Source of the DNA: Oculatellaceae cyanobacterium bins.114
GTDB lineage: Bacteria; Cyanobacteriota; Cyanobacteriia; Elainellales; Elainellaceae
NCBI GenBank assembly: GCA_033764315.1
Contig: JANRJA010000237.1
Location: forward strand, 1 to 37,618
Length of the DNA stretch: 37,618 nt
Direction of reading: 5' to 3'
Positions 41 to 31,900 of the stretch are shown in pieces. Made by a program: the position numbers and the translations under genes. Below the pieces are notes generated by a model. It ran no database searches, had not been told where the DNA came from, and saw nothing but the letters and a program-made list of their open reading frames with translations. Every line of letters starts with the position of its first letter. Positions within the stretch are counted from its first letter, which is position 1.

Positions 41-139
41 TGGGATAGGTCTGCCTAAAAAACGACCTATCCTTTTTTACTAGATTTTGCTCAAATTGTT
101 ACCCGATCAGCCTTAGAGCTGTGTTTGTCACCCCGTCAG
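1..139 (-). mobile_element. End of an IS4-family insertion sequence (continues off the left edge)
   Basis: Minus-strand ATG at 40 reads MNILPPSYQTHLK, resembling the recalled N-terminus of cyanobacterial IS4-family transposases (MLPxFYQTHL). There is a ggataggtc/gacctatcc hairpin at ~43-72 and a putative terminal IR ttgtcaccccgtcag at 125-139, after which cas3-like codons (xRFFKI) begin. Confidence 0.7.
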
Positions 140-2394
140 GTCGCTTCTTCAAAATTGGAGCGAAAGAAAGACAGCATCAATTTTTACTCAATCTCCAGGT
201 TGCAGCACCGTTTCATGATGCTGGCAAAGCAAATGAAGACTTTTTGGCAGCAGTCCTAACACCAGGATTCAAACCTCAGACACTTCGCCATGAACATCTC
301 AGTGCGTTGATTCTCTGTCTGCCACAGGTACGAACTTGGTTGGCTCAGAACCCTTTGTTGGATGTGGATGTCATCACAGCCGCTGTCTTGTCTCACCACT
401 TAAAAGCTTCTAGGGGAGAAGTCAGTATTAATGGCAAAAACTATAAGTGGTGCCAACCTCAAGCGGGAAAGCTGAACCAAACAGTCGAGCTTTATTTGCA
501 GCACGAAGAAGTTACCAGAACATTAGAACAAATTGCAGCGATCGCTGACCTCAAAGGGATTCCTGAACTACCTACGGTTCCTTGGAAGTCCAGTGGTTCT
601 ATGTGGGACAAAGTTTACCGAGAGGGTATCAAGTCAGCCAATGACTTTGAAGATGATATACAAGACGATCCAGAGCGGCGATCGCTTCTCCTTGCGGTTA
701 AAGCAGCATTAATGGTATCTGATGCCGTTGCTTCGGGACTTGTTCGAGAAGGTTACGAAATTGCCGACTGGATTGAGGAAGTGGCTCATTCCACAGCGAT
801 CGCCCCTGACGAAATTGCTGAAAAGATCATCAATCCTCGTATCAAACAGATTGAGAAAAAAACGAAAACAACGTTTACCTATCAAGCTTTTCAGGAACAA
901 GTGGCTGAACAAGGTTCAAAAACTTTGCTCTTAGTTGCTTGTGGTGCTGGCAAGACTTTAGCTGCCTGGAAATGGGCAGAGCAGCAGATTAAGGAATACG
1001 AGGTTGGAAAGATTATTTTCCTCTACCCAACGCGCGGCACTGCAACAGAAGGCTTTCGAGATTATGTGGGCTGGGCACCGGAGGCTGATGCTGCCTTGGT
1101 GACGGGCACAGCTCGTTACGAGTTGGAAGCGATGGCAGAAAATCCTAGCGATGCGATCGCTGACAAAACCTATCGCTCTGAAGCAGACGAAAGGCTCTAC
1201 GCATTAGGCTTCTGGCAAAAGCGGTTTTTCAGTGCCACAGTCGATCAATTTCTTAGTTTTATGGAGCATAGCTACCAAAGCCTATGCTTGTTACCCGCCT
1301 TAGCTGATAGCGCTGTCATTATCGACGAGGTGCATAGCTTTGATCGCTCCATGTTTGATACGTTGATCAGTTTCTTAAAGACTTTTGATATCCCTGTCCT
1401 CTGTATGACGGCAACGTTGCCCAAGTCCAGGCGAGATGAACTAATCGACGCTGGGTTAAAAGTGTTTCCGACAGAAACCGATCGAGCCAGTGAAAGCCTA
1501 AAAGATTTAAGGGATAAAGAGCAGCGTGATCGATATCTGCTAGAACCTGTCCAAAACTTCACTGAAGCCTTTGACAAAGCAGTTGCAGCCTATCAGCAAG
1601 GGCTGAGAGTTTTATGGGTTGTCAACACTGTAGACCGATGCTTGGCGATCGCTCAAAGGTTGGATGAAGAGTTAGGGGTTGAAGTCTTGACTTACCACAG
1701 TCGATTTCGGCTCTGCGATCGGCAAAAGGTTCATGCTAAAACGGTTGACGCTTTTACCTTTCCCGAAAATGATGACCCCAAACCAGCGATCGCTGTAACG
1801 ACTCAAGTTTGTGAAATGAGTTTGGACTTGGATGCTGATGTCCTTATCAGCGAAATTGCTCCAGTGTCAGCATTAGTTCAACGTTTCGGTCGGGCAAATC
1901 GCCATTTAAGGCGTTCCTTTGCGACCCTCCATCCTTATATGCCACCAAAGCATCATCCTTATCAAAAGGAAGACTTAGAGATTGCAAAAACGTTTCTAGA
2001 GAGCTTAGGTACTGACCTGATTAATCAGCATCAGTTGGCGATCGCTTTGGAGCACTATGCTCGTTCTGAACGCTCTGCTGCTGTCGGCTCCTCATTCCTC
2101 GATGGTGGCTACTTTGCAATTCCTGGTTCCTTTCGAGACACCGATGAATTTGCAGTACCTTGCATTCTTGACTGCGACTTTAAAGCTGTGGAGGAACTAA
2201 TAAACGATCGCCAACCCTATGACGGTTTCAAACTAAACGTGCCTCATAAGTGGGTCAAAGCCTGGTTGGAGGACGGTAACACTCGCCCCACTTGGCTACC
2301 TAAGTATCTCCATGTTGCAAGTGGAGATTCAGAGCGATATAGAACGGACCGAGGATTTATCACGAAATCTCCCAAGGAGGTGAGCCTTGGCTAA
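140..2394 (+). pseudogene. cas3: CRISPR helicase/nuclease Cas3, probably 5'-truncated by the IS (the ORF-track start, GTG 121, lies inside the IS end)
   Basis: HD motifs FHDAGK, RHEHLS, SHH; Walker A ACGAGKT; DEVH; MTAT; QRFGRANR. The usual N-terminal AKS...H segment is missing. Confidence 0.85.
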
Positions 2395-4072
2395 AGCAGG
2401 AACAAAGCCAACAACTGTTGAAACGCTTGCGCTGAACTACCAATTAGCTGAACTACCTTCCTCTCAGCATCGGGCAGGATTGGCAGGGCTAATACTGATT
2501 ATCAGGTGGTTAGAGCGACAGGCAGAAGATTCGCATTTCAAGCAGCAGGTGAGAGATGGAGCAATCTGTAAAATTCAACGACTCGACGATAAGGGTGCAA
2601 CTCTTGAGCTGAACCAAGCAGGCGTAGAAGCTTTATTTGATGAAATCTATGCTGCTAGCAATGAGGAACAAGAGCGCAATCAGGTTCTCAAAAATGCTCG
2701 AACAAAGGCAGTCATCCCACCTCTACGTGAGGAGGAACACGAAGAGGTTGATGCTAAGGGCAAAACGAAAACCAAGAAGGTTTATATCTATCCTGTCGTT
2801 GTGCCTAAAGGTTCGTTCCTCGCAGATCCTAGCTATGACAAGAGTTTTGAGGGCAAAAATGGACACTGGATTAAGCTTTGGCGAGATATGGTCTGGAGTA
2901 TCTTGCGGGGAGTCCCTGCCACTCGTAAACCTTTTGAAGCTAGAGCAGAGGGGGCTTTTAACGATGATGCAGTAGCAGTTTGGAAACAACTTACCCAGCC
3001 TGAAGATTTTACTGTAGACTTGCCCAGCACCTATTTCTTAGGGGCGCAAGCCAACAATGCAGAAAATGTGCCGTTCAAGGATCGAGCCAGGTTTCAGTTC
3101 TTGTTGCACTTTTGGTTATTTGCTGCTCAAATTTACGTTCCAGCCGTACTGAATAACGAAGGAAAACGTGATTTTGTAGGCTATGCATTAGCCGTTCCAG
3201 ATGTTGCTGACCTTAAACGCTTCTGCGATCGCTTACCAAAAGTATTGGCAGAACGTGGCATTGAATTATCTGGCTACCGCCCTCGTAATTGCATTGTAGA
3301 TGTAGCCATTGAAAGTGCGCTGGATTTAATGCGGCGGTTAAGCGATCGCCTCATTCAAACAACTGGTGAGCAGAGAACTGCTTCAACGGTTTTAGGGATT
3401 GATGTCATTCACACCGAGAAGCAAGGAAATAATGTTCGCGTTTTAGGGGTATCTAGACTCCAGCCAGAAGATGCAATGGTCAATGAATATGTACAAATTC
3501 GTGACAGCTTCTGGCATCCTCTTTTCCGCAGACAGTGCCTGTTAAATCTAGTGAATCATCAGCCTTGGTATAGCGGATTTGATGCAGTACTTTGCACATT
3601 GCCCTATGAGCAAAGCATTGAGAATGAGTACTTTCGGCGGGATGTGCGAGAAAAAATTAAAGCTTTGATTGCAGAGGACGTTCACATGGAAGAAACAACA
3701 ACAGCAAATGCTTCAACCTCTATTGAACCATTGGTCTTTCGGTTAGTAGGAAACTATGTATCCCGAAAATTGAAAACTAAATATGACTTGGAATGGAAGC
3801 CAGAATGGAAAGGTCTAAAAAATGAAGAATTGAGTCAGAAGGCTGACTACAAGAAGTATGCCGAGATGAAGGCAAAAGTTGCTAAATCTGCATTTTTAGA
3901 TGTTCGTAGTCGCACTGAGCAGATGGATTTTGTCAATTACTTTGTCTCCAGTTTGTGTTCAGTTCCACAGCACATGAAATCTGAAGACTTTGTTGATCTA
4001 ACAAAAGCGTTGTACCAGGAAACTGACAAAATCCGAACGCTCACTTTACTCGCCCTATCTGCTAACAGCTAA
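2387..4072 (+). CDS. cas8: Type I-B/I-MYXAN large subunit Cas8 (Cmx1/Cmx8-like)
   Basis: 561 aa with LPSSQHRAGLAGL and WRDMVWSILRGVPATR motifs; overlaps the cas3 stop and precedes cas7. Confidence 0.9.
   Translation: MAKAGTKPTTVETLALNYQLAELPSSQHRAGLAGLILIIRWLERQAEDSHFKQQVRDGAICKIQRLDDKGATLELNQAGVEALFDEIYAASNEEQERNQVLKNARTKAVIPPLREEEHEEVDAKGKTKTKKVYIYPVVVPKGSFLADPSYDKSFEGKNGHWIKLWRDMVWSILRGVPATRKPFEARAEGAFNDDAVAVWKQLTQPEDFTVDLPSTYFLGAQANNAENVPFKDRARFQFLLHFWLFAAQIYVPAVLNNEGKRDFVGYALAVPDVADLKRFCDRLPKVLAERGIELSGYRPRNCIVDVAIESALDLMRRLSDRLIQTTGEQRTASTVLGIDVIHTEKQGNNVRVLGVSRLQPEDAMVNEYVQIRDSFWHPLFRRQCLLNLVNHQPWYSGFDAVLCTLPYEQSIENEYFRRDVREKIKALIAEDVHMEETTTANASTSIEPLVFRLVGNYVSRKLKTKYDLEWKPEWKGLKNEELSQKADYKKYAEMKAKVAKSAFLDVRSRTEQMDFVNYFVSSLCSVPQHMKSEDFVDLTKALYQETDKIRTLTLLALSANS
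3686..4072 (+). CDS. cas11: Probable internally translated small subunit Cas11 (128 aa, in frame with cas8)
   Basis: GAGGA at 3674-3678 lies 7 nt before an in-frame ATG at 3686, at a linker before the C-terminal domain. Internal Cas11 translation is established for types I-B, I-C and I-D. Confidence 0.7.
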   Translation: MEETTTANASTSIEPLVFRLVGNYVSRKLKTKYDLEWKPEWKGLKNEELSQKADYKKYAEMKAKVAKSAFLDVRSRTEQMDFVNYFVSSLCSVPQHMKSEDFVDLTKALYQETDKIRTLTLLALSANS

Positions 4073-4098: not shown

Positions 4099-4989
4099 AT
4101 GAACAAGAACCTATTTGCTACAGTTTTGACCTACCCTGCTCCTAGCTCTAACTATCGGGGTGAGAGTGAGGAGAATCGTACCGTGCTACAAAAGATTGCT
4201 AAGGGCAATAAAGAATATACGGTGATCAGCCCTGAATCCATGCGGAATGCCTTGCGGGAAATGTTGATTAAAGCTGGAATGCCCTGCAATCGCACTCGTT
4301 TGCACAATGAAGACCAGCTTGCAGTCGAGTTTAAGGAGTTTCCCAACGCTGAGAAGTACGCAGATGATTTTTTGTTTGGGTATATGGTTGCCGATAACGA
4401 GGCAATCAAGAAAAACAAGGGTACACCGTCAAAGCGGGACAGCATCTTACGGATGAACTTGGCTGTTGCTCTGACTCCTTATCGTTTTGATGCAACTTTC
4501 CACCAATCCCCCCTCAATGCAGGTGCGAGTCCCTGGAAAAACTCATCAACATCTGCCCTCTTACATCGAGAGATTGCCCATACCGCCTACCAGTATCCCT
4601 TTGCACTGTCATCCTCTGACTGTAAAGCAAAACCAGATTGGACAAAGGCACTGCTGAATGCGATCGCCCAGTTATCTGACGTAGCAGGCGGTCATGCTCG
4701 TAGCTATTACGAAATGGCTCCAAAGAGCATCGTGGCTCGTCTCACTCCTAGCTTGGTCGCTGGCTACGATACCTATGGCTTTAATGAACAGGGTGGCTTC
4801 TCAGAACTGGAACGGATTAGCGCCAGTGACCTTCCTGGTGAGGAATTCTGGATTGGTGGCGAAATTGTCCGGAATATGAAGCCTGAACAGCGGCAATACT
4901 TAACAACTCAAAAGGCTCATCTCTACGAGAACCCACAAAAGCTACTGGTAGACTTGGCAGCGGCTTTCCTAACAACGGAGGCAGCTTAA
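4099..4989 (+). CDS. cas7: Cas7/Cst2/DevR backbone subunit
   Basis: 296 aa with NYRGESEENRTVLQKI, DDFLFGYM and VAGGHAR motifs; operon position. Confidence 0.92.
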   Translation: MNKNLFATVLTYPAPSSNYRGESEENRTVLQKIAKGNKEYTVISPESMRNALREMLIKAGMPCNRTRLHNEDQLAVEFKEFPNAEKYADDFLFGYMVADNEAIKKNKGTPSKRDSILRMNLAVALTPYRFDATFHQSPLNAGASPWKNSSTSALLHREIAHTAYQYPFALSSSDCKAKPDWTKALLNAIAQLSDVAGGHARSYYEMAPKSIVARLTPSLVAGYDTYGFNEQGGFSELERISASDLPGEEFWIGGEIVRNMKPEQRQYLTTQKAHLYENPQKLLVDLAAAFLTTEAA

Positions 4990-5700
4990 ATGGAGTGCTT
5001 ATGGCTCCGCATCCGTGCCCCCTTTGCAGCATTTCGCGGCTTCCAGGCAGGTGTTTATCGCGCAACGGCTCCAGTAATGCCTCCCTCTACAGCATTTGGG
5101 TTAGTGCTGAATTTGGCAGGGATTGAAATGCGAGATACCACGAATCGCCCAACGACTCTCATTCGTTCAGACCTACCTTGTTTGAAGCTGGCGATCGGCA
5201 CTGTACCGGGTACTGATAGTGAAGTCTGTACACTATACCAACAGCTTCATAGTTACCCTGTAGGTGCTTCTGGAAAAGAGTTGGCTGCTCGAACGCATGG
5301 TGCAAAATACTGGATTGTGCCAGTTCGTCGAGAATTTCTGGTGGGACTGGATATGGTGTTGGGGGTTCAGGCAGAAGCACAATTGCTTCAGCAAGTTCAA
5401 CAGGGATTACGAGGGGAGTTAGATAAGCCTCGCTATGGTCTACCTTTTGCGGGAGACAATAACTTCCTATTCGATCGCATTGATATTCTTGATGCTCCTC
5501 CGCCAACTCTTTGGTATGTCCAAATGCAATCGGATGATCCACCGATGCACGGTTCCTATCGCTTAACCGTTGGCATCAATCGCGCCGATAACAGTAAAAC
5601 AACTAGTTTTCTCTATGCACCTCTAGAGGAACCTAGCAGTGAACCACCGGAAACTGCATGGACATGGACACCCAAACAACCTGAAATGGCTGTAGTCTAA
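4990..5700 (+). CDS. cas5: Cas5/DevS
   Basis: N-terminal LRIRAPFAAFR...PPSTAFGLVLNLAG Cas5 signature; YGLPFAGDNNF. Confidence 0.92.
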   Translation: MECLWLRIRAPFAAFRGFQAGVYRATAPVMPPSTAFGLVLNLAGIEMRDTTNRPTTLIRSDLPCLKLAIGTVPGTDSEVCTLYQQLHSYPVGASGKELAARTHGAKYWIVPVRREFLVGLDMVLGVQAEAQLLQQVQQGLRGELDKPRYGLPFAGDNNFLFDRIDILDAPPPTLWYVQMQSDDPPMHGSYRLTVGINRADNSKTTSFLYAPLEEPSSEPPETAWTWTPKQPEMAVV

Positions 5701-5787
5701 TCAGCGATCGCCAAAAAAGGCAAATCATAATTACTAATTTTCCAAGTTTTGAACCTTGAAAACTAAATATGATCACAATGCAACCTC

Positions 5788-5822
5788 CCAGCAAACCTTA
5801 GATGCCGTTAGGCGATTTTAGG
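5788..5822 (+). repeat. Solitary degenerate CRISPR repeat
   Basis: ccagcaaaccttagatgccgttaggcgattttagg matches the array repeat at 20 of 23 positions over repeat positions 5-27; the GCC-N4-GGC hairpin is kept and the 3' 8-nt handle has diverged. Confidence 0.8.
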
Positions 5823-5888
5823 GAGGGGCAACACTCCTATCAATGAGCATTACACTAAAAACAACACCTTCGATCGCCCGATCGCCCT

Positions 5889-6443
5889 ATGGTTCACATT
5901 ACCGATAAACAGCTCACCCTGGAAGAATTTTTGGCATTGCCCGATGGCGATGTCACCTACGAACTGGTTAATGGAGTTGCAATTCCAAAAGTGTCGCCTA
6001 AATTTTTTCATTCCACCGTTCAAAGAAACCTACTCTTCCTGCTAGATAGCTGGTGTGAAGACAAAGGGCGGGTTGTTCCAGAATGGGCAATTACTCTCAA
6101 ACGACACGGAAAAGATTGGGTGCCTGTTCCAGATCTGACTTACATTTCATTCGATCGCCTTCCAGCAGAATGGGTTGAAGATGAGGCGTGTCCCGTTGCA
6201 CCCGAGTTGGCGATCGAAATTATTTCTCCAGGGCAAACCTTTGGTGAAATGGTCGAAAAAGCGATTAATTATTTAGAGGCAGGAGTTCAGCGCGTTTGGG
6301 TGATTGATACTCAAGCCAAGAATCTTACCGTTTTCTATCCCGATGCCCCACCCCAAACTTATACAGGTGAAATGCTGTTGGCAGACTCGCTCTTTCCGGG
6401 GTTACAACTGACGGCTCAAGCTATCCTTCCTTCGCAGAAATAG
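5889..6443 (+). CDS. Uma2-family (PD-(D/E)XK) endonuclease
   Basis: LTLEEFL, YELVNG, VPDL, PELAIEIISP and VQRVWVID motifs. Confidence 0.9.
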   Translation: MVHITDKQLTLEEFLALPDGDVTYELVNGVAIPKVSPKFFHSTVQRNLLFLLDSWCEDKGRVVPEWAITLKRHGKDWVPVPDLTYISFDRLPAEWVEDEACPVAPELAIEIISPGQTFGEMVEKAINYLEAGVQRVWVIDTQAKNLTVFYPDAPPQTYTGEMLLADSLFPGLQLTAQAILPSQK

Positions 6444-6533
6444 TTTGTGTGTAACTCCCTAACAGAAGTGGGTTACATCGCCCTCCTAGTGGCTCTCTAG
6501 TATGATAAGCGTGTACCCATTGAGATAAATGCC

Positions 6534-7157
6534 ATGATGCAGGCATTGTCTAAATCCCTGAGTTTTGATGAATTCATGGCATGGTATCCAGAGCAATCGG
6601 AATACCGCTATGAGTTGCATGATGGAGTCGTGATTGAAATGCCGAAACCGACTGGCAAGCATTCAGAAATTGCCGGATTGATTGCGGCTGAATTAAACTT
6701 TGAAATTCGTCGTCAGCAGTTGCCCTATCTAATTCCTAAGGAATGCATTGTCAAGGTTGACGAATCTGGGTACGAGCCAGACGTGATTGTTTTGAATCGT
6801 CCAAACCTCACAAACGAACCGCGTTGGGCGAAAGAGTCAACTATCACCCAGGGACAATCGGCAAAGCTTGTGGTTGAGGTGGTCAGCACTAATTGGAGTG
6901 ATGACTATGCACTCAAACTCGAAGATTATGAAGCGTTAGGAATTGCGGAGTACTGGATTTGTGATTACCTGGGATTGGGCGGCAGGCGGTTTATCGGCTT
7001 TCCCAAGCAGCCAACCTTTTCGGTCTACTGCTTGAAACCATCTGGCGAGTATCAACTTCAGCAATTTCGAGGAGAGGAGGCGATCGCTTCTCAGATCTTT
7101 CCACAGTTACACCTCAGCATGGCTCAAGTGTTAGCAGCTGTAAGCCAGTCATCCTGA
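6534..7157 (+). CDS. Uma2-family endonuclease
   Basis: YELHDGVVIEM, YEPDVIVL, LVVEVVSTNW and YEALGIAEYWI motifs. Confidence 0.9.
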   Translation: MMQALSKSLSFDEFMAWYPEQSEYRYELHDGVVIEMPKPTGKHSEIAGLIAAELNFEIRRQQLPYLIPKECIVKVDESGYEPDVIVLNRPNLTNEPRWAKESTITQGQSAKLVVEVVSTNWSDDYALKLEDYEALGIAEYWICDYLGLGGRRFIGFPKQPTFSVYCLKPSGEYQLQQFRGEEAIASQIFPQLHLSMAQVLAAVSQSS

Positions 7158-7316
7158 GCCACGAGTGATCTTTAATACGGTTGTTCTTCGTAGAGATTAT
7201 CGAAATACACTCGTACTGAAGCAGCAAAGTCAGGTAGGAACTCGGAATGCGATCGCCAGAGCATGGCAGTACAGATCGAGTAGAGATGTTTATCTACCCT
7301 CTACCGAGAACTGGAA

Positions 7317-8981
7317 ATGCTGTCACACCCGATCGCACTACTCGAAGTTGAGCCGCAGGAGCCGTTGCGAGTCAACGCATTGCACGCTCTAGCCTACTGT
7401 CCGCGTTTGTTTTATCTCGAAGAGGTTGAAGAACTCTATACCCAAGATGCCGCTGTATTTGCGGGGCGACGGCTCCATGTAGAACTGGAGCGCGACGAAG
7501 ATGGCACATGGGAGACGCTAACCCTTGAAGATGAGGCATTGGGATTACGAGGTAAGGTTGATGCCTTGCGATCGCGTAATGGGCAACTGATTCCCTACGA
7601 ACACAAGCGTGGGCGCTGCCATCGAGGAGCCAATAATGAAGCCCAAGCATGGGAGAGCGATCGCCTGCAAATTCTCGCCTATGCTTGTTTGATTGAAGCG
7701 GTTTTAGGAGTCACGATAGCCGAAGGGCGCATCCGTTATCACGCTGATAATGTGTTAGTCAAAGTTCCATTGGATGATGAGGCGCGACAGCAAGTCCAGG
7801 ATGCCATTCACAGGGCACAGCATTTGCGACAAAGCACCGAACGCCCACCCATTGCCAATAACGAGCGGCTATGTGGTCGCTGCTCCCTTGCCAGTGTGTG
7901 TTTACCTGAAGAGACACGCTTTGCTCAAGACCCAGACCATCAACCCACACGGCTGTTTCCAGAGGATGACGAGCGCGAAATTTTGCACGTTTTAGAGGCA
8001 GGTACGAGAGTCGGCAAAAGTGGAGGACAAATCAAAATTACTAAATTAGATGGCTCTGCTACGGGTCTACCTGCCCGTCAAGTAGGTCAACTCGTCTTAC
8101 ATGGGGCTGTGCAGGTTTCAACTCAAACGCTGCATTTTTGTGCAGAGCAGGAGATTGGGGTGCATTTCCTCTCAGGTGGTGGTAAGTATGTCGGCAGCTT
8201 TGATACTCGTGCTGGCAGTATTCAACGTCGCCTTCGCCAATATAAAGCATTGAGTGATCCAGAGTTTTGCTTGAAGTTGGCACGGCAACTAGTGACGTGT
8301 CACGGGCAGAGTCAACGCAAATTTTTGATGCGGGGGCTGCGAAATACTGAATCTGAAAAACTAGAGTATGCCATTGAGCAGATTCAAAAACTGCTGAAAC
8401 AGGTGAATGAAGCCCAATCTATCGCCTCGCTATTAGGTTATGAGGGCAACATTGCGAGACTGTATTTTGACGCATTGCCGGAGCTATTAGGTGACAGTAT
8501 TCCTGAAGAGTTCCAATTCAGCGATCGCAATCGTCGCCCACCCAGAGATCGGTTCAATTGCCTGCTCAGTTATGGCTACTCACTGCTGCTCAAGGATGTG
8601 ATGAATGCCATTCTGGCAGTTGGGTTAGAGCCTGCTCTGAGCTTCTACCATCAGCCCCGCACTCAAGCGCCACCTCTGGCTCTGGATCTCATGGAAATCT
8701 TTCGAGTGCCGCTGGTTGATTTAGTCGTGATGGGATCTGTCAACCGGGGACAGTGGCAAGTAACTGAAGATTTCGACATCAAGGGGGAACAGGTCTTTCT
8801 CAGTGATAGTGGTCGTCGGAAGTTTATTCAACTCTATGAGCGCCGCAAAGAGGAAAGCTGGAAACATTCGATGTTGGGCTATTCCTTGACATATCGCCGC
8901 TTGCTAGAGCTAGAAGTGCGTCTGCTGGAAAAAGAGTGGACGGGCGAAGGTGGTTTGTTTGCCCAACTCGTGATTCGCTAA
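7317..8981 (+). CDS. cas1: Cas4-Cas1 fusion
   Basis: The N-terminal Cas4 part has YCPR, GKVD, EHK and CxxCxxxxxC. The C-terminal Cas1 part has GYEG, RNRRPPRDRFNCLLSYGY, FYH and LALDLMEIFR. Confidence 0.95.
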   Translation: MLSHPIALLEVEPQEPLRVNALHALAYCPRLFYLEEVEELYTQDAAVFAGRRLHVELERDEDGTWETLTLEDEALGLRGKVDALRSRNGQLIPYEHKRGRCHRGANNEAQAWESDRLQILAYACLIEAVLGVTIAEGRIRYHADNVLVKVPLDDEARQQVQDAIHRAQHLRQSTERPPIANNERLCGRCSLASVCLPEETRFAQDPDHQPTRLFPEDDEREILHVLEAGTRVGKSGGQIKITKLDGSATGLPARQVGQLVLHGAVQVSTQTLHFCAEQEIGVHFLSGGGKYVGSFDTRAGSIQRRLRQYKALSDPEFCLKLARQLVTCHGQSQRKFLMRGLRNTESEKLEYAIEQIQKLLKQVNEAQSIASLLGYEGNIARLYFDALPELLGDSIPEEFQFSDRNRRPPRDRFNCLLSYGYSLLLKDVMNAILAVGLEPALSFYHQPRTQAPPLALDLMEIFRVPLVDLVVMGSVNRGQWQVTEDFDIKGEQVFLSDSGRRKFIQLYERRKEESWKHSMLGYSLTYRRLLELEVRLLEKEWTGEGGLFAQLVIR

Positions 8982-8991
8982 GGGAGACATC

Positions 8992-9285
8992 ATGGCAGAG
9001 TCCAAAAATTTCTATATGATTTGCTATGACATTCGCGATCCAAAACGCTGGCGGAAAGCTTTCAATCTGTTGAAGGGGTATGGCGAGAGTTTGCAGTACT
9101 CCATCTTTCGCTGTCGGCTCAGTCAACGCGATCGCGAACAACTGCGCTGGGAGCTAGAGAAGATCTTGACCCCTGAGGATAGTCTGCTCATTGCTGGATT
9201 GTGCAACCAATGTGTAGAACGTATCCAGGCTTGCAACCGCCCGGAATCGTGGACAGTCGAGCAGGAAAAAGTCCGAATTTTTTGA
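8992..9285 (+). CDS. cas2: Cas2
   Basis: 97 aa with YMICYDI and LQYSIF motifs. Confidence 0.95.
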   Translation: MAESKNFYMICYDIRDPKRWRKAFNLLKGYGESLQYSIFRCRLSQRDREQLRWELEKILTPEDSLLIAGLCNQCVERIQACNRPESWTVEQEKVRIF

Positions 9286-9532
9286 TGCAAGGATCACTGC
9301 GTGTCAGATTCAATTGTTTGGGAAAAGAGGCGATCGCCTCACTGTATAAAGATTTGAGGCTCTGAGTAGAACAAACCAATGCTTGCAAACTCCACAGGCT
9401 TGATGCTGTGTTCATTTTCATCCGAGCCTCTAGTAGTACAATGGGAACAATTGGGGACAGTTGGTTCCAAGGAATTCACACCTTGCAAAACTACCCAGGA
9501 AGCCTCTCCTGAAGAGGATTTCCAACCCCGCT
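9286..9532 (+). promoter_or_regulatory. CRISPR leader
   Basis: Non-coding stretch between cas2 and the first repeat; the degenerate repeat is at the far end of the array. Confidence 0.7.
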
Positions 9533-11202
9533 GTTCCAAACCTCTGATGCCGTAAGGCGTTGAGCACTGGAACAAGTTATCAATAGCATCAAAGATTATT
9601 TAGACGAGTGTTCCAAACCTCTGATGCCGTAAGGCGTTGAGCACTATTTAGGATTTAATTAATAATGTCAAAAACTACGTTCCAAACCTCTGATGCCGTA
9701 AGGCGTTGAGCACTGTTTAGCGATCTTGCACCGTTCCTGATTTTTGACGTTCCAAACCTCTGATGCCGTAAGGCGTTGAGCACAGTTACCTTTCCATGTC
9801 AAATTGAATTGCTCTAGCAGTTCCAAACCTCTGATGCCGTAAGGCGTTGAGCACATTTACTCCAGATAAGTGGTTCCAACATCGAAGAAAAAGGTTCCAA
9901 ACCTCTGATGCCGTAAGGCGTTGAGCACAGAATAGGTTGAGCGACAAACAGTTGCAAGACCTGGTTCCAAACCTCTGATGCCGTAAGGCGTTGAGCACAA
10001 GTGATTTTTCTACTCCGTCACTGACACTTCCATGTTCCAAACCTCTGATGCCGTAAGGCGTTGAGCACCGGTTGAGTGGCAAGTTGTCGAATATGCCGAT
10101 TGCGTTCCAAACCTCTGATGCCGTAAGGCGTTGAGCACGTCGTCTTTTAGGCATTGCAAGCAACCTGTAAGGCGTTCCAAACCTCTGATGCCGTAAGGCG
10201 TTGAGCACGGGTACAAGTGTCTCAAGCCAAAACCATGCTGCATGTTCCAAACCTCTGATGCCGTAAGGCGTTGAGCACTACCGCACAGGGATGAGCTAAA
10301 TAAACCGATGCATGTTCCAAACCTCTGATGCCGTAAGGCGTTGAGCACGTGCGTCGTCCTGTGCATCTCACTGAATCACGGAGGTTCCAAACCTCTGATG
10401 CCGTAGGGCGTTGAGCACTAAGTAATTAATTGGTTTTCGTACGTTTCAGGAGTCGCTCCAAACCTCTGATGCCGTAAGGCGTTGAGCACACGCACACCAC
10501 CGGGGTTCTGTCCTTGTGACGTACGTTCCAAACCTCTGATGCCGTAAGGCGTTGAGCACGAGAGAGTGAATATGGAGAAACGGTTTACTTCCGGTGCAAT
10601 CAAGTTCCAAACCTCTGATGCCGTAAGGCGTTGAGCACCGGTTTCTGAAGTTGTTCATGGGTGGGCTTATCTCGTTCCAAACCTCTGATGCCGTAAGGCG
10701 TTGAGCACAGGGCACTGCTGGCAAGATACGCTTGTAGCCCTGAAGGTTCCAAACCTCTGATGCCGTAAGGCGTTGAGCACGGGATTGCTCAAATATTACT
10801 GGCTTCCCTATCAAAAGTTCCAAACCTCTGATGCCGTAAGGCGTTGAGCACATTGAAGTGCCTGATGAGTATGTATCTCAGGTTAAGGTTCCAAACCTCT
10901 GATGCCGTAAGGCGTTGAGCACTGGCTGCTGGATAGGAGCAGGGGCGATCGTATTACCGTTCCAAACCTCTGATGCCGTAAGGCGTTGAGCACGAGCGAA
11001 TTCCTCCATTAGTTTCATCATCTCGTCGGTTCCAAACCTCTGATGCCGTAAGGCGTTGAGCACTATGAATCAATCATTTCTCACTCTGGGCAACGAGCGT
11101 TCCAAACCTCTGATGCCGTAAGGCGTTGAGCACATAGTTCTGGGGATCTTGAGAAGATCGTTTACTTGTTCCAAACCTCTGATGCCACAAGACCTTGAGA
11201 AC
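9533..11202 (+). CRISPR. CRISPR array: 24 repeats (35 nt, GTTCCAAACCTCTGATGCCGTAAGGCGTTGAGCAC), 23 spacers of 34-44 nt
   Basis: Counted directly. Repeats 13 (10384) and 14 (10455) each carry one substitution; terminal repeat 11168-11202 is degenerate (GCCACAAGACCTTGAGAAC). Confidence 0.99.
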
Positions 11203-12480: not shown

Positions 12481-12573
12481 GCTAGGTGAGCTATATGCAG
12501 GGGGGAGAACAACATGAATCTTAACGCTTAAGAGAAAAAGAAATGGTAGTCTAAGGATTGCAAATACAGTGAA

Positions 12574-12690
12574 TTCGGTTCTAATGGGGGTCAGCCATTA
12601 GAAGAAATGGGGAAAATTTGGTGTAAGCCCAATGCTGTCCCGCAACTGTGATGAGTCTGTGTGACTCTTAGCCAGGATGCCCACCGAAAT
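12574..12690 (+). ncRNA. Cobalamin riboswitch
   Basis: ggttct...ggggaa...ggtgtaagccc...gctgtcccgcaactgtga...agccaggatgcccacc pattern with closing ttcggt/accgaa. A downstream tctg-cgaggta-caga hairpin covers the cbtB RBS. Confidence 0.88.
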
Positions 12691-12727
12691 CTCTACGGCA
12701 TATCAAGCAATCTGCGAGGTACAGAGC

Positions 12728-12946: not shown

Positions 12947-14116
12947 GTGAAATTAACTAAATACGTTGGTCTTTTTCTGGTAGCGAGTGTTGCTAGTTTA
13001 TCGGTTTGGCTATGGAACTCACTGCCCGCCGCATCTCAAGCCACAGTGCAGTTGCAGACCAATCCACCCATTGATCAGGTGATTCCGGCGACAGAGCCTG
13101 TGCAATTAACCTTGCAAGCGATTGATAGCCATCAACAGCCCCTAGCCGATGCCAACTTTCAAGTGCAGTTGTTGACTCCTGCCAAAACTCCCTGGTTTAC
13201 GTCAGACTTTCCAATTGTGGAGGGAACCACGTTACTGGAGATAAATGCGATCGCCCCTTCAGGATCATTCCAGTTTGAGCAAACACTGCCCATTCGAGGC
13301 ACCTATCACCTAGAGGTGAATGTCTCGCCTCAAACACCTGGCAGTTTTGAGCCGTTTGATCAGGTGATCTCGTTTTCTGTGCCAGAAAATCCAGTGAAGT
13401 ATCGCAACGTCGCCATTTTAGCCGTGATTTTGCTGTTAGCAGGCGCAGGCAGTGGTTGGGTGTTAGGTGCTGATCAAATCCTTGAAGAGGGCGAGATTGC
13501 CCCCAGACCCGTGAGGATGTTGCTGAGTGCTGCGATCGTGCTAGCGATCGCTGTCTTGTTGGTGATCAACATTAGTTCTGAGATCACTGAGGGTCATGGC
13601 AGCCATAGTCATGAACATGAGCAGGCAATTACTTCCTCTGCTCCTGCCACACAAACCTCTCAAGACATTCAAGTGACGCTTTCTGGAGACACGCTAGCAA
13701 CGGTGGGGCAAACGGCAACCCAGACGGTGCAAATTGTCGATGCAACCACTCAAAAAGCGGTGCCAGACGTTGTAGTCAATGTGCAAGTCAACTCTCTAGA
13801 GCATAACGAGCGCATCTTTAGCCTTGAGGGATTGCCTAACACATCTGGAGAACTCATATGGCAACAGCAATTTTTTGATGGTGCTCCTCATCAGGTGATA
13901 GCCACGATCGCACCGACTGGTAGCAGTTCACGCCAATTTTTACCGATTCAAGTGTCTCATGAAGTCAGTGTTGAGGCGATCGCTCCCCCCTTATATATCC
14001 GTTTTATTACACTGATTTATTTCACGGCTATCTTTGTGGTGAGTTTAGGGATTGGTTTCATCATTCAACGAAAAACAGGTCACTCTAAGTGGCGTGTTGG
14101 TGATCGAGTTGGGTAA
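12947..14116 (+). CDS. Uncharacterised membrane protein with His-rich segment
   Basis: Signal or TM segment, two soluble beta-rich-looking regions, three further TM segments, and HGSHSHEHE. Confidence 0.75.
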   Translation: MKLTKYVGLFLVASVASLSVWLWNSLPAASQATVQLQTNPPIDQVIPATEPVQLTLQAIDSHQQPLADANFQVQLLTPAKTPWFTSDFPIVEGTTLLEINAIAPSGSFQFEQTLPIRGTYHLEVNVSPQTPGSFEPFDQVISFSVPENPVKYRNVAILAVILLLAGAGSGWVLGADQILEEGEIAPRPVRMLLSAAIVLAIAVLLVINISSEITEGHGSHSHEHEQAITSSAPATQTSQDIQVTLSGDTLATVGQTATQTVQIVDATTQKAVPDVVVNVQVNSLEHNERIFSLEGLPNTSGELIWQQQFFDGAPHQVIATIAPTGSSSRQFLPIQVSHEVSVEAIAPPLYIRFITLIYFTAIFVVSLGIGFIIQRKTGHSKWRVGDRVG

Positions 14117-26053: not shown

Positions 26054-27286
26054 TTATAGGTTGAATCGGGATGACAAAGACTGTTGGGTTTTGGCGTGAT
26101 GATAGATCTGATGATATATGTCGCGTTGAGCGTGGCTGCCACCGAGTTGATGTAACTTGGGGTTGGCGATCGCCAATTGTTTTACACAGGTTGACCAATC
26201 TTGTCGGGCATGAGCCATCATCGCCTGAGCTACTGGAACGGTTACCTCTGCCCAAATTGCCCGAATCGAGGGATGAGCCTGTTGGCTATAGGCAACAATG
26301 CTATCAAGCATTTCACGCACCCATTGATCATAGCCAGCCCGTGTTAGTGCGTAAATGTATTGCGTATCGAGCAATGGAGAAATGTGATCATGGCGATCGC
26401 GCACCGCATCCCCCAACTCTTGCCAGCGATCGCCCACATCGATGCCCCGCAACTCTAATCGCACCAGCAATGAAATCGCATTGATCAGACATTGAGAATA
26501 GTCTTTAACGGCTCGTCCCCAAATTTGGCTGTCATACAGGTGCAACACTTGCTCTACATTGCTCTGCGCCAGATAATACAGGGCCACATGCCACCAGTTG
26601 TGCGTCCTAAAGGTGCCGCAATTCTCCCAGGTATCCGCCAGTGACTCCATCCAGGCGATGCCTTCGTCCAAACGGTGTTGCGTTTCCATCACATGAGCAA
26701 CCGCATGATGTGCCCAAGGGTCTTGGCGATTCATCTCAACAGCTTGTCGTCCAGCGGTTTCTGCTTCGGTCAAACGGTGGCATTGCTCCAGTCCAAATGC
26801 CACCATGCCATAGACAAAGTGGTTCTCTAAATTAGCAGGCAAGATGGTCTCAGCCAACTTGAGCAATCCCTGAGCATTGCCTAGATTAAAGTGGTGATAT
26901 TGCCCGATTTGAGCCGCTAAGACATCCTGCGGATAGCACTCTGCTAAAACAGTGTGACAGGCAAGGGCACGATCGAAATCATAGTCAGACCAAGCGGCGA
27001 TCGCCTCTACATAGAGCTGTTCTCGCTCGGTCGCCAAATCGAGATGCTGTTGAGCCGCGTACAAATAGGGTTTTGCTGCCGTTGAGGCACTGGCAGTTTC
27101 AGCAAACAAATGTAAGGCCGCCACATGTGCGTTGACTAACACACTGGTTGGGTCTGCCGCTAACCCCTGCAAAATGACCTGGGGGTTGTTCTCATAGCCC
27201 AACATCTGTTGAGCAAACTGATCAATTGCGGCGATCGCATCGGGTGAATCGGTAGTCACGGGTAGTCCCTGATGATCGAGCAGCAT
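26054..27286 (-). CDS. Tetratricopeptide repeat protein (TTC38-like)
   Basis: DPWAHHAVAHVME, HNWWHVALY and LGGSHAQRD motifs; start set at ATG 27286. Confidence 0.85.
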   Translation of the reverse strand: MLLDHQGLPVTTDSPDAIAAIDQFAQQMLGYENNPQVILQGLAADPTSVLVNAHVAALHLFAETASASTAAKPYLYAAQQHLDLATEREQLYVEAIAAWSDYDFDRALACHTVLAECYPQDVLAAQIGQYHHFNLGNAQGLLKLAETILPANLENHFVYGMVAFGLEQCHRLTEAETAGRQAVEMNRQDPWAHHAVAHVMETQHRLDEGIAWMESLADTWENCGTFRTHNWWHVALYYLAQSNVEQVLHLYDSQIWGRAVKDYSQCLINAISLLVRLELRGIDVGDRWQELGDAVRDRHDHISPLLDTQYIYALTRAGYDQWVREMLDSIVAYSQQAHPSIRAIWAEVTVPVAQAMMAHARQDWSTCVKQLAIANPKLHQLGGSHAQRDIYHQIYHHAKTQQSLSSRFNL

Positions 27287-31711: not shown

Positions 31712-31900
31712 TGGTAGAAACGCGATTGGGAGTTTGATTGGGGCATTGGTAGAAACGTAATTGGGGAGTTAATTGGGGCATTGGTAGAAACGCGATTGGG
31801 GGGTTGATTGGGGCATTGGTATTGGTAGAAACGCGATTAATCGCGTTTCTACAACGTTTCTACCAATATTTCTGCCAATGCCTCTAATTTCCCCTAATTG
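31712..31900. repeat. 35-bp tandem repeat (3 copies) built from a REP half-site, followed by the full palindrome
   Basis: Unit tggtagaaacgcgattgggagtttgattggggcat; then gtagaaacgcgattaatcgcgtttctac; then a degenerate inverted copy. Confidence 0.85.

Follow-up and report, generated by a model that had tools for sequence, protein, structure and literature searches.

A solitary repeat-like hairpin between the effector and adaptation genes of a type I-MYXAN CRISPR-Cas locus: a candidate Cas6 processing site

The locus and its genes

The window, by which we mean the whole stretch of 37,618 nucleotides analysed here, holds a type I-MYXAN CRISPR-Cas locus on the + strand, with the order cas3, cmx8, cas7, cas5, two Uma2-family genes, cas4/1, cas2 and the array (Table 1). 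The window starts 120 bases 5' of cas3 and does not contain cas6, the gene that directly precedes cas3 in related loci; by analogy with these, cas6, its promoter and a mini-array are expected in the DNA upstream of the window. The array repeat is GTTCCAAACCTCTGATGCCGTAAGGCGTTGAGCAC, and 20 of the array repeats pass the threshold of the Rfam family CRISPR-DR33 (RF01343); the terminal repeat is decaying, and its hairpin is gone. GCGATCGC palindromes are also present in the window and, like the nearest relatives of its Cas5, indicate a filamentous cyanobacterium; relatives closer than those compared below have a Cas5 that is 82-88% identical.

Between cas5 and the first Uma2-family gene lies a solitary repeat-like element, which we call psiR. 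The same region has a small ORF at 5844 (21 codons, 17 bases from a GGAGG) that begins MSITL and has a counterpart beginning MSRTL in a related locus, L003 (related loci are numbered with an L throughout). A conserved ACACTAAAAACA stretch, common to the window and L011, is part of the Uma2 upstream region.

Table 1. Features of the I-MYXAN locus, in window coordinates
Feature	Position	Strand	Remarks
cas3	121-2394	+	
cmx8	2387-4072	+	
cmx8 copy of the 17-base sequence	3770..3786	+	encodes L-K-T-K-Y-D of the conserved RKLKxKYDLE motif
cas7	4099-4989	+	
cas5 (Cmx5/DevS)	4990-5700	+	gene upstream of psiR; TIGR02586, 120 bits
Possible hairpin-less first pseudo-repeat tTTCCAAgttTTGAACCT	5739..5756	+	inferred, and only if the region encodes a guide; fits repeat start TTCCAA, handle 5/8
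Leader-like box CCTTGAAAACTAAATA	5754..5769	+	
CRISPR-leader motif CTTGAAAAC	5755-5763	+	32 bases 5' of psiR; holds the "handle-like" octamer
17-base exact identity with 3770-3786	5756..5772	+	20/22 including flanks
Extended stem CCTCCC (5785-5790) / GGGAGG (5821-5826)	5785..5826	+	encloses the hairpin; from folding
psiR, solitary repeat-like element	5787..5822 (36-base repeat register); 5788-5822 (35-base register)	+	
Cas6-type hairpin GATGCC-GTTA-GGCG(AT)	5801..5816	+	four-pair core 5803-5806 with 5811-5814
Uma2-family gene 1	5889-6443	+	cargo between psiR and cas4/1; PF05685, E 5e-34
Uma2-family gene 2	6534-7157	+	cargo between psiR and cas4/1; PF05685, E 4e-38
cas4/1 fusion	7317-8981	+	adaptation
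cas2	8992-9285	+	adaptation
Leader motif CTTGCAAAA of the true array	9482..9490	+	50 bases 5' of repeat 1
CRISPR array	9533-11202	+	23 good repeats and 1 degenerate terminal repeat
Degenerate terminal array repeat	11168-11202	+	

The psiR element and its fold

The core of psiR at 5792-5814 (CAAACCTTAGATGCCGTTAGGCG) is identical to positions 5-27 of the array repeat at 20 of 23 bases, as the first-pass annotation had claimed, and the element diverges from the repeat in its first four and last eight bases. When the core pattern is searched over the whole window with at most three mismatches, 24 sites are returned, namely the 23 array repeats and psiR, which is the sole site beyond the array; the same pattern in 100 shuffles gives a mean of 0.00 matches. 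The distance to the array had also been given correctly as 3.7 kb. As a single copy with diverged ends, psiR is not a CRISPR array, which would show at least two repeats, spacers and intact ends; as intergenic sequence that resembles the repeat of its own locus, it is a standalone repeat.

More general models see less of it. Against CRISPR-DR33 psiR scores 15.9 bits (E 1.2; gathering score 39), with a two-base insertion 3' of the hairpin, and against a covariance model of the full repeat, built from 43 array repeats, it scores 8.9 bits, a low value because the invariant handle dominates that model. The full-repeat covariance model is therefore dropped for a handle-less model and a weight matrix. 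With the handle-less model psiR is the top match outside the array (15.0 bits, E ~0.05), and the runner-up in the window, at 26096, is near at 13.9 bits. Since the family-wide models score psiR weakly and the runner-up is so close, it is the similarity to the local repeat, together with conservation, that carries the case.

What psiR retains of the array repeat is only the hairpin recognised by Cmx6 there. The hairpin GAUGCC-GUUA-GGCG is intact, as first noted, and its core is identical to that of the array, which makes it a candidate Cas6 (Cmx6) substrate by sequence; L051 and L080 have the loop GTTA in their real arrays too. Folding of 5777-5836 (-18 kcal/mol, z -1.9, equalled by 8 of 200 shuffles) reproduces the outer stem CCUCCC/GGGAGG and puts AUUUUA on UUAGAU, so that both pairings proposed from the bare sequence, the bracket around the element and the changed 3' handle folding back, are recovered. 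An equivalent outer stem of different sequence is present in L003. In two Acidobacteriota loci (L036, L068) the outer stem round the hairpin covers the cas4/1 ribosome-binding site, with folding z-scores that are not significant, and in these loci cleavage could switch on translation.

A hairpin of this kind followed by a T-rich stretch (GGCGATTTTAGG) might also act as a plain transcription attenuator, cutting read-through into the downstream genes with no role for Cas6. The energy of the extended stem fits such a role, and so do the T-rich tails that lie 3' of many of the hairpins (ATTTTAGG in the window, TTTTCTTT in L011, TTTTTTCC in L009 and ATTTTAAT in L068). We consider it very unlikely, however, as the T run is short and interrupted, a terminator scan of 5400-7400 returns one site at 6765 and none at psiR, and the exact sequence of the Cas6 hairpin is kept in the 26 elements described below, where any stem would do.

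Recurrence and conservation in related loci

The recurrence of psiR is examined in a Cas5-anchored set of 81 loci (80 relatives and the window), in which the cas genes are mapped by tblastn. The interval from the cas5 stop to cas4/1 (or 1.5 kb) is scanned with a position-weight matrix made from the 43 array repeats without the handle; 79 of the 81 loci are assessable, giving 48,033 bases. Matches of at least 8.8 between cas5 and cas4/1 are found in 24 of the 81 loci, versus 0.9 expected, the expectation being taken from 16 matches of at least 8 on both strands of 424,344 bases of cas coding sequence. Conservation in related loci, which the first-pass annotation had named as a check, is thus observed. 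One further locus, L051, is borderline with a score of 6.2.

Three of the 24 loci have true arrays at this position. L004 has a 5-repeat array after cas5 and a broken cas4/1, and in L056 and L080, which have no adaptation genes, the array follows cas5 immediately. The remaining 21 loci have one to three pseudo-repeats each, every one on the operon strand. Among the carriers are many cyanobacteria, four Acidobacteriota loci (L036, L057, L059, L068) and one from Cryomorphaceae (L069). By a hand tally of the locus rows, the element is missing from about half of the cyanobacterial loci, and the Myxococcota-labelled loci have no post-cas5 element except the true array of L056; the Synechocystis PCC 6714 plasmid pSYLB has the upstream element and none after cas5. 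An element that is absent from many loci cannot be essential.

The elements are heterogeneous, with one to three copies, some with an intact handle, at 0 to 1020 bases from cas5. In eight loci (L009, L010, L011, L014, L015, L036, L068, L078) no more than 20 bases separate the cas5 stop from the start of the element, too few to accommodate a promoter together with a first pseudo-repeat and spacer. In L019, L029, L030 and L076 the element is found 67-118 bases 5' of cas4/1, behind inserted genes. The element keeps to the junction on whichever side the cargo is found: cargo genes lie 3' of it in the window, L009, L010 and L011 and 5' of it in L019, L030 and L076. L029 and L037 also carry a like hairpin 8-10 bases 3' of the cmx8 stop, and L077 has one 106 bases 5' of cas7.

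We align 26 post-cas5 elements, psiR and 25 from related loci. The four inner pairs of the hairpin are standard in 25, 26, 26 and 25 of the 26, and the nine one-sided changes in these pairs all retain standard pairing. No two-sided compensatory change is found in the hairpin among the 26 elements, and the structure is therefore backed by conservation, not by covariation. The pair next outward is broken in 8 of the 26, psiR among them, where the base after the stem is A and all 43 array repeats have T; judged from the sequence, this A could impair cleavage. The six handle bases come within one mismatch of GAGCAC in 5 of the 26 elements and are lost in 21. An A before GATGCC is present in 13 of the 26 elements as compared with 2 of the 43 array repeats, and this shared derived base argues for the descent of a common element over repeated copying from local arrays. 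It suggests that the post-cas5 elements descend from one another and not from each local array.

The leader-like box and the origin of psiR

Upstream of psiR is a leader-like box, CCTTGAAAACTAAATA, which recurs 3' of cas5 in L004, L005, L010, L012, L064, L069 and L077. The box contains CTTGAAAAC, and this motif can be recognised in the leaders of true arrays, where CTTGCAAAA, or CTTGAAAAC in Myxococcota, stands at a fixed distance 5' of repeat 1. With at most two mismatches the leader motif is found in 27 of 43 leaders versus 4 of 43 control windows, at -50 to -53 in 17 of them and at -39 to -41 in 5. The first-pass annotation had seen two handle-like octamers in this region, ttgaacct (5749-5756) and ttgaaaac (5756-5763). 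They stand at the positions claimed; compared with TTGAGCAC, they match at only 5/8 and 6/8 bases. When the psiR region is aligned with the leader and repeat 1 of its own array, the order is the same and the linker is 18 bases shorter. Because the octamer lies inside a conserved leader motif and the order is shared, the psiR unit resembles a truncated leader and first repeat. In its composition psiR is a degenerate one-repeat CRISPR unit, in which a motif of the leader type and a shortened linker precede the pseudo-repeat. A scan of the + strand at 5400-7400 finds no sigma-70 promoter. By eye, a -35-like TTGAAA is conserved in the box and a -10 is not.

This arrangement invites the explanation that psiR is a relic without function, a decaying leader and first repeat left behind by recombination. 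An adaptation module or cargo inserted into a former post-cas5 array, or repeat-to-repeat recombination between loci, would be possible sources. In favour of this, L004 has a real array and the same box at this very site, together with a broken cas4/1, and in the two loci without adaptation genes the array directly follows cas5. The variable number, distance and handle state of the elements, the many loci that have none, and the gathering of cargo genes at the cas5 junction agree with a relic as well, as does the core of psiR, which is closer to other repeat variants (CCTTAGATGCCGT, loop GTTA) than to the local repeat. The decay is not uniform, however. While both ends have been free to change, the core is kept in 25-26 of the 26 elements and any one core pair is broken in at most one; the terminal repeat of the array, in contrast, has lost its hairpin. 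Moreover, elements that abut the cas5 or cmx8 stop have no leader, and the element is carried by several phyla with a shared derived base. We therefore take a functionless relic to be unlikely, though a serious alternative.

Comparison with guide-encoding mini-arrays

Does psiR encode a guide? CreR/CreA RNAs are the products of mini-CRISPRs and guide Cascade to repress cas or toxin promoters (10.1101/2023.03.10.532045, PMC8501985). The related loci provide a positive control, as many of them have mini-arrays about 1.3 kb 5' of cas3. These upstream mini-arrays consist of a pseudo-repeat 1 keeping GTTGAGCAC, a spacer of 29-35 bases, and a pseudo-repeat 2 that retains the hairpin, has no handle, and often reads GGCGATT. 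In 6 of 9 mini-arrays (L007, L011, L013, L037, L075, L078) the start of the spacer matches a site 64-81 bases downstream. With seed runs counted so as to skip every sixth base, these verified regulators have runs of 13-16, with mismatches at positions 6, 12 and 18, and the target flank is ATG in all six. Their pseudo-repeat 1 is mostly GTTGAGCAC with at most two changes; that of L029 departs more. The upstream mini-arrays agree with what PMC10120712 reports of I-B mini-arrays 5' of cas6, and they are in line with the CreR concept (10.1101/2023.03.10.532045). As an independent check of the PAM, the array spacers were compared with phage sequences and gave no match; their matches among plasmids are other arrays, not protospacers.

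The post-cas5 elements do not behave in this way. Under the ATG rule, the longest run among 19 elements is 9 (8 for psiR) when the register before the hairpin is used, so that none attains 10, and none of 30 does so in the register after the handle; ATG-flanked runs of 9 are at chance level. One 9-run with an ATG flank, in the L075 mini-array at a site 67 bases 5' of cas3, is taken as noise, being shifted by a single base from the register and no more than the roughly one such run expected over 30 elements. For the psiR spacer, no ATG-flanked site with a seed run above 8 exists in the 37.6-kb window. A target for the stretch before psiR, which the first-pass annotation had suggested searching for, is accordingly not found under the ATG PAM within the window, which begins 120 bases 5' of cas3. 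A convincing upstream pseudo-repeat with an 8-base 5' handle is likewise missing from psiR, no hairpin standing before the two octamers. The Cas6 hairpin that the downstream pseudo-repeat of CreR/CreA keeps is present in psiR.

There is one observation on the other side. The 17 bases at 5756-5772 are identical to 3770-3786 within cmx8, while the maximum in 100 shuffles is 13. Exact-match searches of the element surroundings against their own locus give 13 in L003, 14 in L069 and 12 in L012, all at the level of shuffles, which the 17 of the window exceeds. The 12-mer of L012, which starts from the first spacer base, lies inside an ORF with the flank CGA and is taken as a chance match. If the PAM rule is set aside, the cmx8 site (run of 14-15) stands alone in the window as a strong candidate target. 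The cmx8 sites of L004 and L012 likewise share 15/17 and 14/17 bases with the box of the window; it is on account of the bases specific to the window (ACT in cmx8, TATGA in the box) that the full identity is not easily dismissed. L003 has a 21/23 copy of its own homologous stretch (9800-9822) upstream of its operon.

A CreR/CreA-type guide against cmx8, or against a target beyond the window, would be constructed as follows. The first pseudo-repeat at 5739-5756 would give the handle (TTGAACCT or TTGAAAAC), with 5757-5786 serving as pseudo-spacer and 5787-5822 as second pseudo-repeat, and the loaded Cascade would bind 3770-3786 without cutting and block transcription into cas7 and cas5. The identity with cmx8 speaks for such a guide, in that its seed run resembles what the six verified regulators show upstream of cas6, its end is as abrupt as with partial-match guides, and the homologous stretch of L003 likewise has a copy elsewhere in its locus. 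The second pseudo-repeats of the regulators look like psiR, and guides of this sort are established for I-B, I-E and V-A (10.1101/2023.03.10.532045, PMC10120712). Several details of the match, however, speak against a guide. The three bases beside the cmx8 site read AAA, AAT or AAC, according to register, and never the ATG of the verified targets; the identity spans the would-be handle, which is not needed for pairing between guide and target; and the target would be intragenic and not a promoter. The cmx8 site is conserved coding sequence, whose counterparts in L004 and L012 also resemble the box of the window, CTTGAAAAC is a leader motif, the octamers are poor handles with no hairpin from which Cas6 could form the 5' end, and the ATG-flanked runs of the whole family are short in both registers. 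The real identity with cmx8 keeps the guide alive as an explanation, which we nevertheless regard as improbable.

Discussion

The first-pass annotation had left two choices, a mini-guide or a site at which Cas6 cuts the cas messenger. The second gains from the comparison, as the core is kept, the handle is lost and every element is on the operon strand; the first loses by it, as the octamer belongs to a leader motif and no ATG-flanked target is found. Our preferred reading, which we put forward tentatively and at somewhat less than an even chance, is that psiR is a Cas6 (Cmx6) hairpin by which the cas transcript is marked or cut where the effector genes give way to the adaptation genes. From its sequence, recurrent position and pattern of conservation we infer the following course of events. 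The element would act as RNA and in cis, being transcribed within the message of the cas operon and possibly from the leader-type motif too. Cas6 would bind the hairpin and probably cut at its 3' base, which would leave an effector message with a protein-capped 3' hairpin and free a downstream message with a new 5' end. The cut would thus uncouple the expression of the effector genes from that of the downstream genes, here the two Uma2-family genes, cas4/1 and cas2. The 17-base identity with cmx8 is left unaccounted for by a Cas6 processing site.

The hairpins after the cmx8 stop and the outer stems over the ribosome-binding site are consistent with a role at the level of RNA. They lead us to a broader and more doubtful proposal, namely that I-MYXAN operons are punctuated by Cas6 hairpins derived from their own repeats, with Cas6 cutting the messenger of its own system. 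The sites of punctuation may be those after cas5 (psiR), after cmx8 (in one cyanobacterial clade), and before cas6 within the guide-encoding mini-arrays.

How does psiR relate to the systems already described? Like CreR/CreA, it is a degenerate repeat in a type I cas locus, and in both the downstream pseudo-repeat keeps the Cas6 hairpin while the handle part drifts (10.1101/2023.03.10.532045, PMC8501985). The differences are that psiR has neither a convincing handle-bearing first pseudo-repeat nor a PAM-flanked promoter target, and that the post-cas5 elements often abut a stop codon. In Haloarcula hispanica, whose CreA has one repeat, it is the handle-giving repeat that remains (PMC8501985), so that this CreA and psiR have kept opposite halves. 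The standalone repeats catalogued in PMC10120712 are, as psiR is, repeat-like, intergenic among cas genes and conserved in relatives. According to the same source, some single repeat units may have been mini-arrays of which one repeat decayed, cargo genes gather beside single repeat units and mini-arrays, and in I-B the units are enriched around cas6, with targets between mini-array and cas6. The searched text of PMC10120712 makes no mention of cas5, cyanobacteria or Myxococcus. Standalone repeats in cas loci are thus a known kind, and in the parts of these sources that our search covered we did not find described the position of psiR or its target-less, hairpin-only form.

Phage RNA anti-CRISPRs (PMC10651486) share with psiR the lone repeat-like hairpin, and solitary repeats of phages do act as decoys. 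We regard it as highly improbable that psiR RNA titrates Cas6 or other Cas proteins in this manner, since the anti-CRISPRs are virus-borne and directed against the host system, whereas psiR is part of the host operon, chromosomal, within its own cas genes and vertically conserved. No phage genes are found among 19 further window ORFs that were scanned, the plasmid collection searched with 5650-5900 gives no match, and neither the region nor the array brings up a mobile copy in phage and plasmid searches.

In its architecture psiR also recalls the minimal or empty CRISPR array, which consists of a leader and one repeat and in which integration needs both repeat ends. The leader motif is followed by one repeat in the orientation of the array, and L004 shows that a working-looking array is possible at this position; the repeat ends of psiR, however, have diverged and its leader-to-repeat spacing is 18 bases short. 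Engineered Csy4/Cas6 sites, finally, insulate genes in synthetic operons. There, too, a Cas6 hairpin stands between cistrons and its cleavage uncouples their expression; what is artificial in the insulators is proposed here for psiR. Our literature search found no natural Cas6 insulator within a cas operon.

Standalone repeats of cas loci are known mainly as guides by which the effector represses promoters. The psiR element fails the guide tests that real guides in related loci pass, and yet several phyla have kept its hairpin at a gene boundary. Should Cas6 cut the message of its own operon there, repeat relics would have a second use, at the level of RNA, and cells a simple route to abundant effector and scarce adaptation proteins from a single operon. 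For the little-studied I-MYXAN subtype, which includes the dev operon of Myxococcus, an operon known to repress itself, the comparison yields a PAM that can be tested (ATG) as well as a group of self-regulators. If the punctuation of operons proposed above is true, it would be the natural counterpart of the engineered Csy4 insulators and would determine in what proportion effector and adaptation proteins are made, and the expression of cas4/1, cas2 and the Uma2 cargo would be linked to the level of free Cas6.

The cas5 - cas4/1 junction

The table collects the features around the degenerate, repeat-like element that follows cas5 (the pseudo-repeat), together with those found elsewhere in the window and in the related loci (L numbers). 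In the window and in L003, the roughly 20 bases just 5' of the pseudo-repeat have a near-exact direct copy elsewhere within their own locus. In L004 a second CRISPR array stands directly 3' of cas5; it has a leader-like box and is followed on its 3' side by cas4/1 fragments.

Two genes of the Uma2 family lie in tandem at this junction in the window, and Uma2-like genes are also seen there in L009, L011, L030 and L076, where they lie 5' or 3' of the pseudo-repeat. Small antitoxin-like ORFs are found 3' of cas5 in L003 (9712-9800) and likewise in L015 and L027. That of L003 appears to be shortened by the box (the leader-like stretch upstream of the pseudo-repeat) and the pseudo-repeat itself.

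At 75-90 bases 5' of cas4/1 we find the conserved element CGGAAnnnTTTTTGCCnGG, carried by L005, L007, L010, L012, L013, L017, L037, L054, L064, L077 and L081. The Synechocystis PCC 6714 copy folds into a clean hairpin, CCCCUG...CAGGGG, with Us after it. The stem around the pseudo-repeat hairpin pairs with the cas4/1 Shine-Dalgarno sequence in L036 (9744-9793, AAGGAG) and L068 (9705-9754, AGGAGG), with folding z-scores of -0.7 and -0.6 respectively, neither of which is significant.

Features of the window and related loci
Feature	Locus	Position	Remark
Terminator-like hairpin and T run	window	43-90	about 30 bases 5' of cas3 start
Copy pair	window	5756-5772; 3770-3786	before pseudo-repeat; inside cmx8
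Uma2-family gene 1	window	5889-6443	PF05685; between cas5 and cas4/1
Uma2-family gene 2	window	6534-7157	PF05685; between cas5 and cas4/1
Leader motif of array	window	9482-9490	
Cobalamin riboswitch	window	12559-12702	58.9 bits
Tandem repeat	window	31712-31821	35-base unit, 3.1 copies
Copy pair	L003	9800-9822; 1860-1882	before pseudo-repeat; upstream of operon
Second CRISPR array	L004	9771-10103	five repeats; directly 3' of cas5
CGGAAnnnTTTTTGCCnGG element	L081	9693-9716	
Repeat-like hairpin	L029	5643	near cmx8/cas7
Repeat-like hairpin	L037	7994	near cmx8/cas7
Repeat-like hairpin	L077	98	near cmx8/cas7
Repeat-like hairpin	L075	6861-6877	near cmx8/cas7
CreR-like mini-array	L007	2761-2900	
CreR-like mini-array	L011	about 2200-2340	

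Elements elsewhere in the loci

In one cyanobacterial clade, a repeat-like hairpin lies 8-10 bases 3' of the cmx8 stop and 5' of cas7, with the handle (the 3' repeat end) partly retained as TTGGGCAG or similar. Across the leaders of 43 arrays, the motif CTTGCAAAA / CTTGAAAAC keeps a fixed distance 5' of repeat 1, at -50 to -53 or about -40, and a second motif, AGGnTTTCAG, is located nearer the repeat in cyanobacteria. Because of the terminator-like hairpin and T run, cas3 in the window may not be co-transcribed with whatever is upstream. The cobalamin riboswitch lies 5' of an unassigned ORF at 12947-14116.

Mini-arrays and the PAM

CreR-like mini-arrays, each of two degenerate repeats and a spacer, are present upstream of cas6 in L007, L011, L013, L037, L075 and L078, those of the last four about 1.3 kb 5' of cas3. 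Their self-targets are located 64-81 bases downstream. All six self-targets are flanked by ATG, and the spacers mismatch them at positions 6, 12 and 18; the sequences suggest ATG as the PAM of type I-MYXAN.
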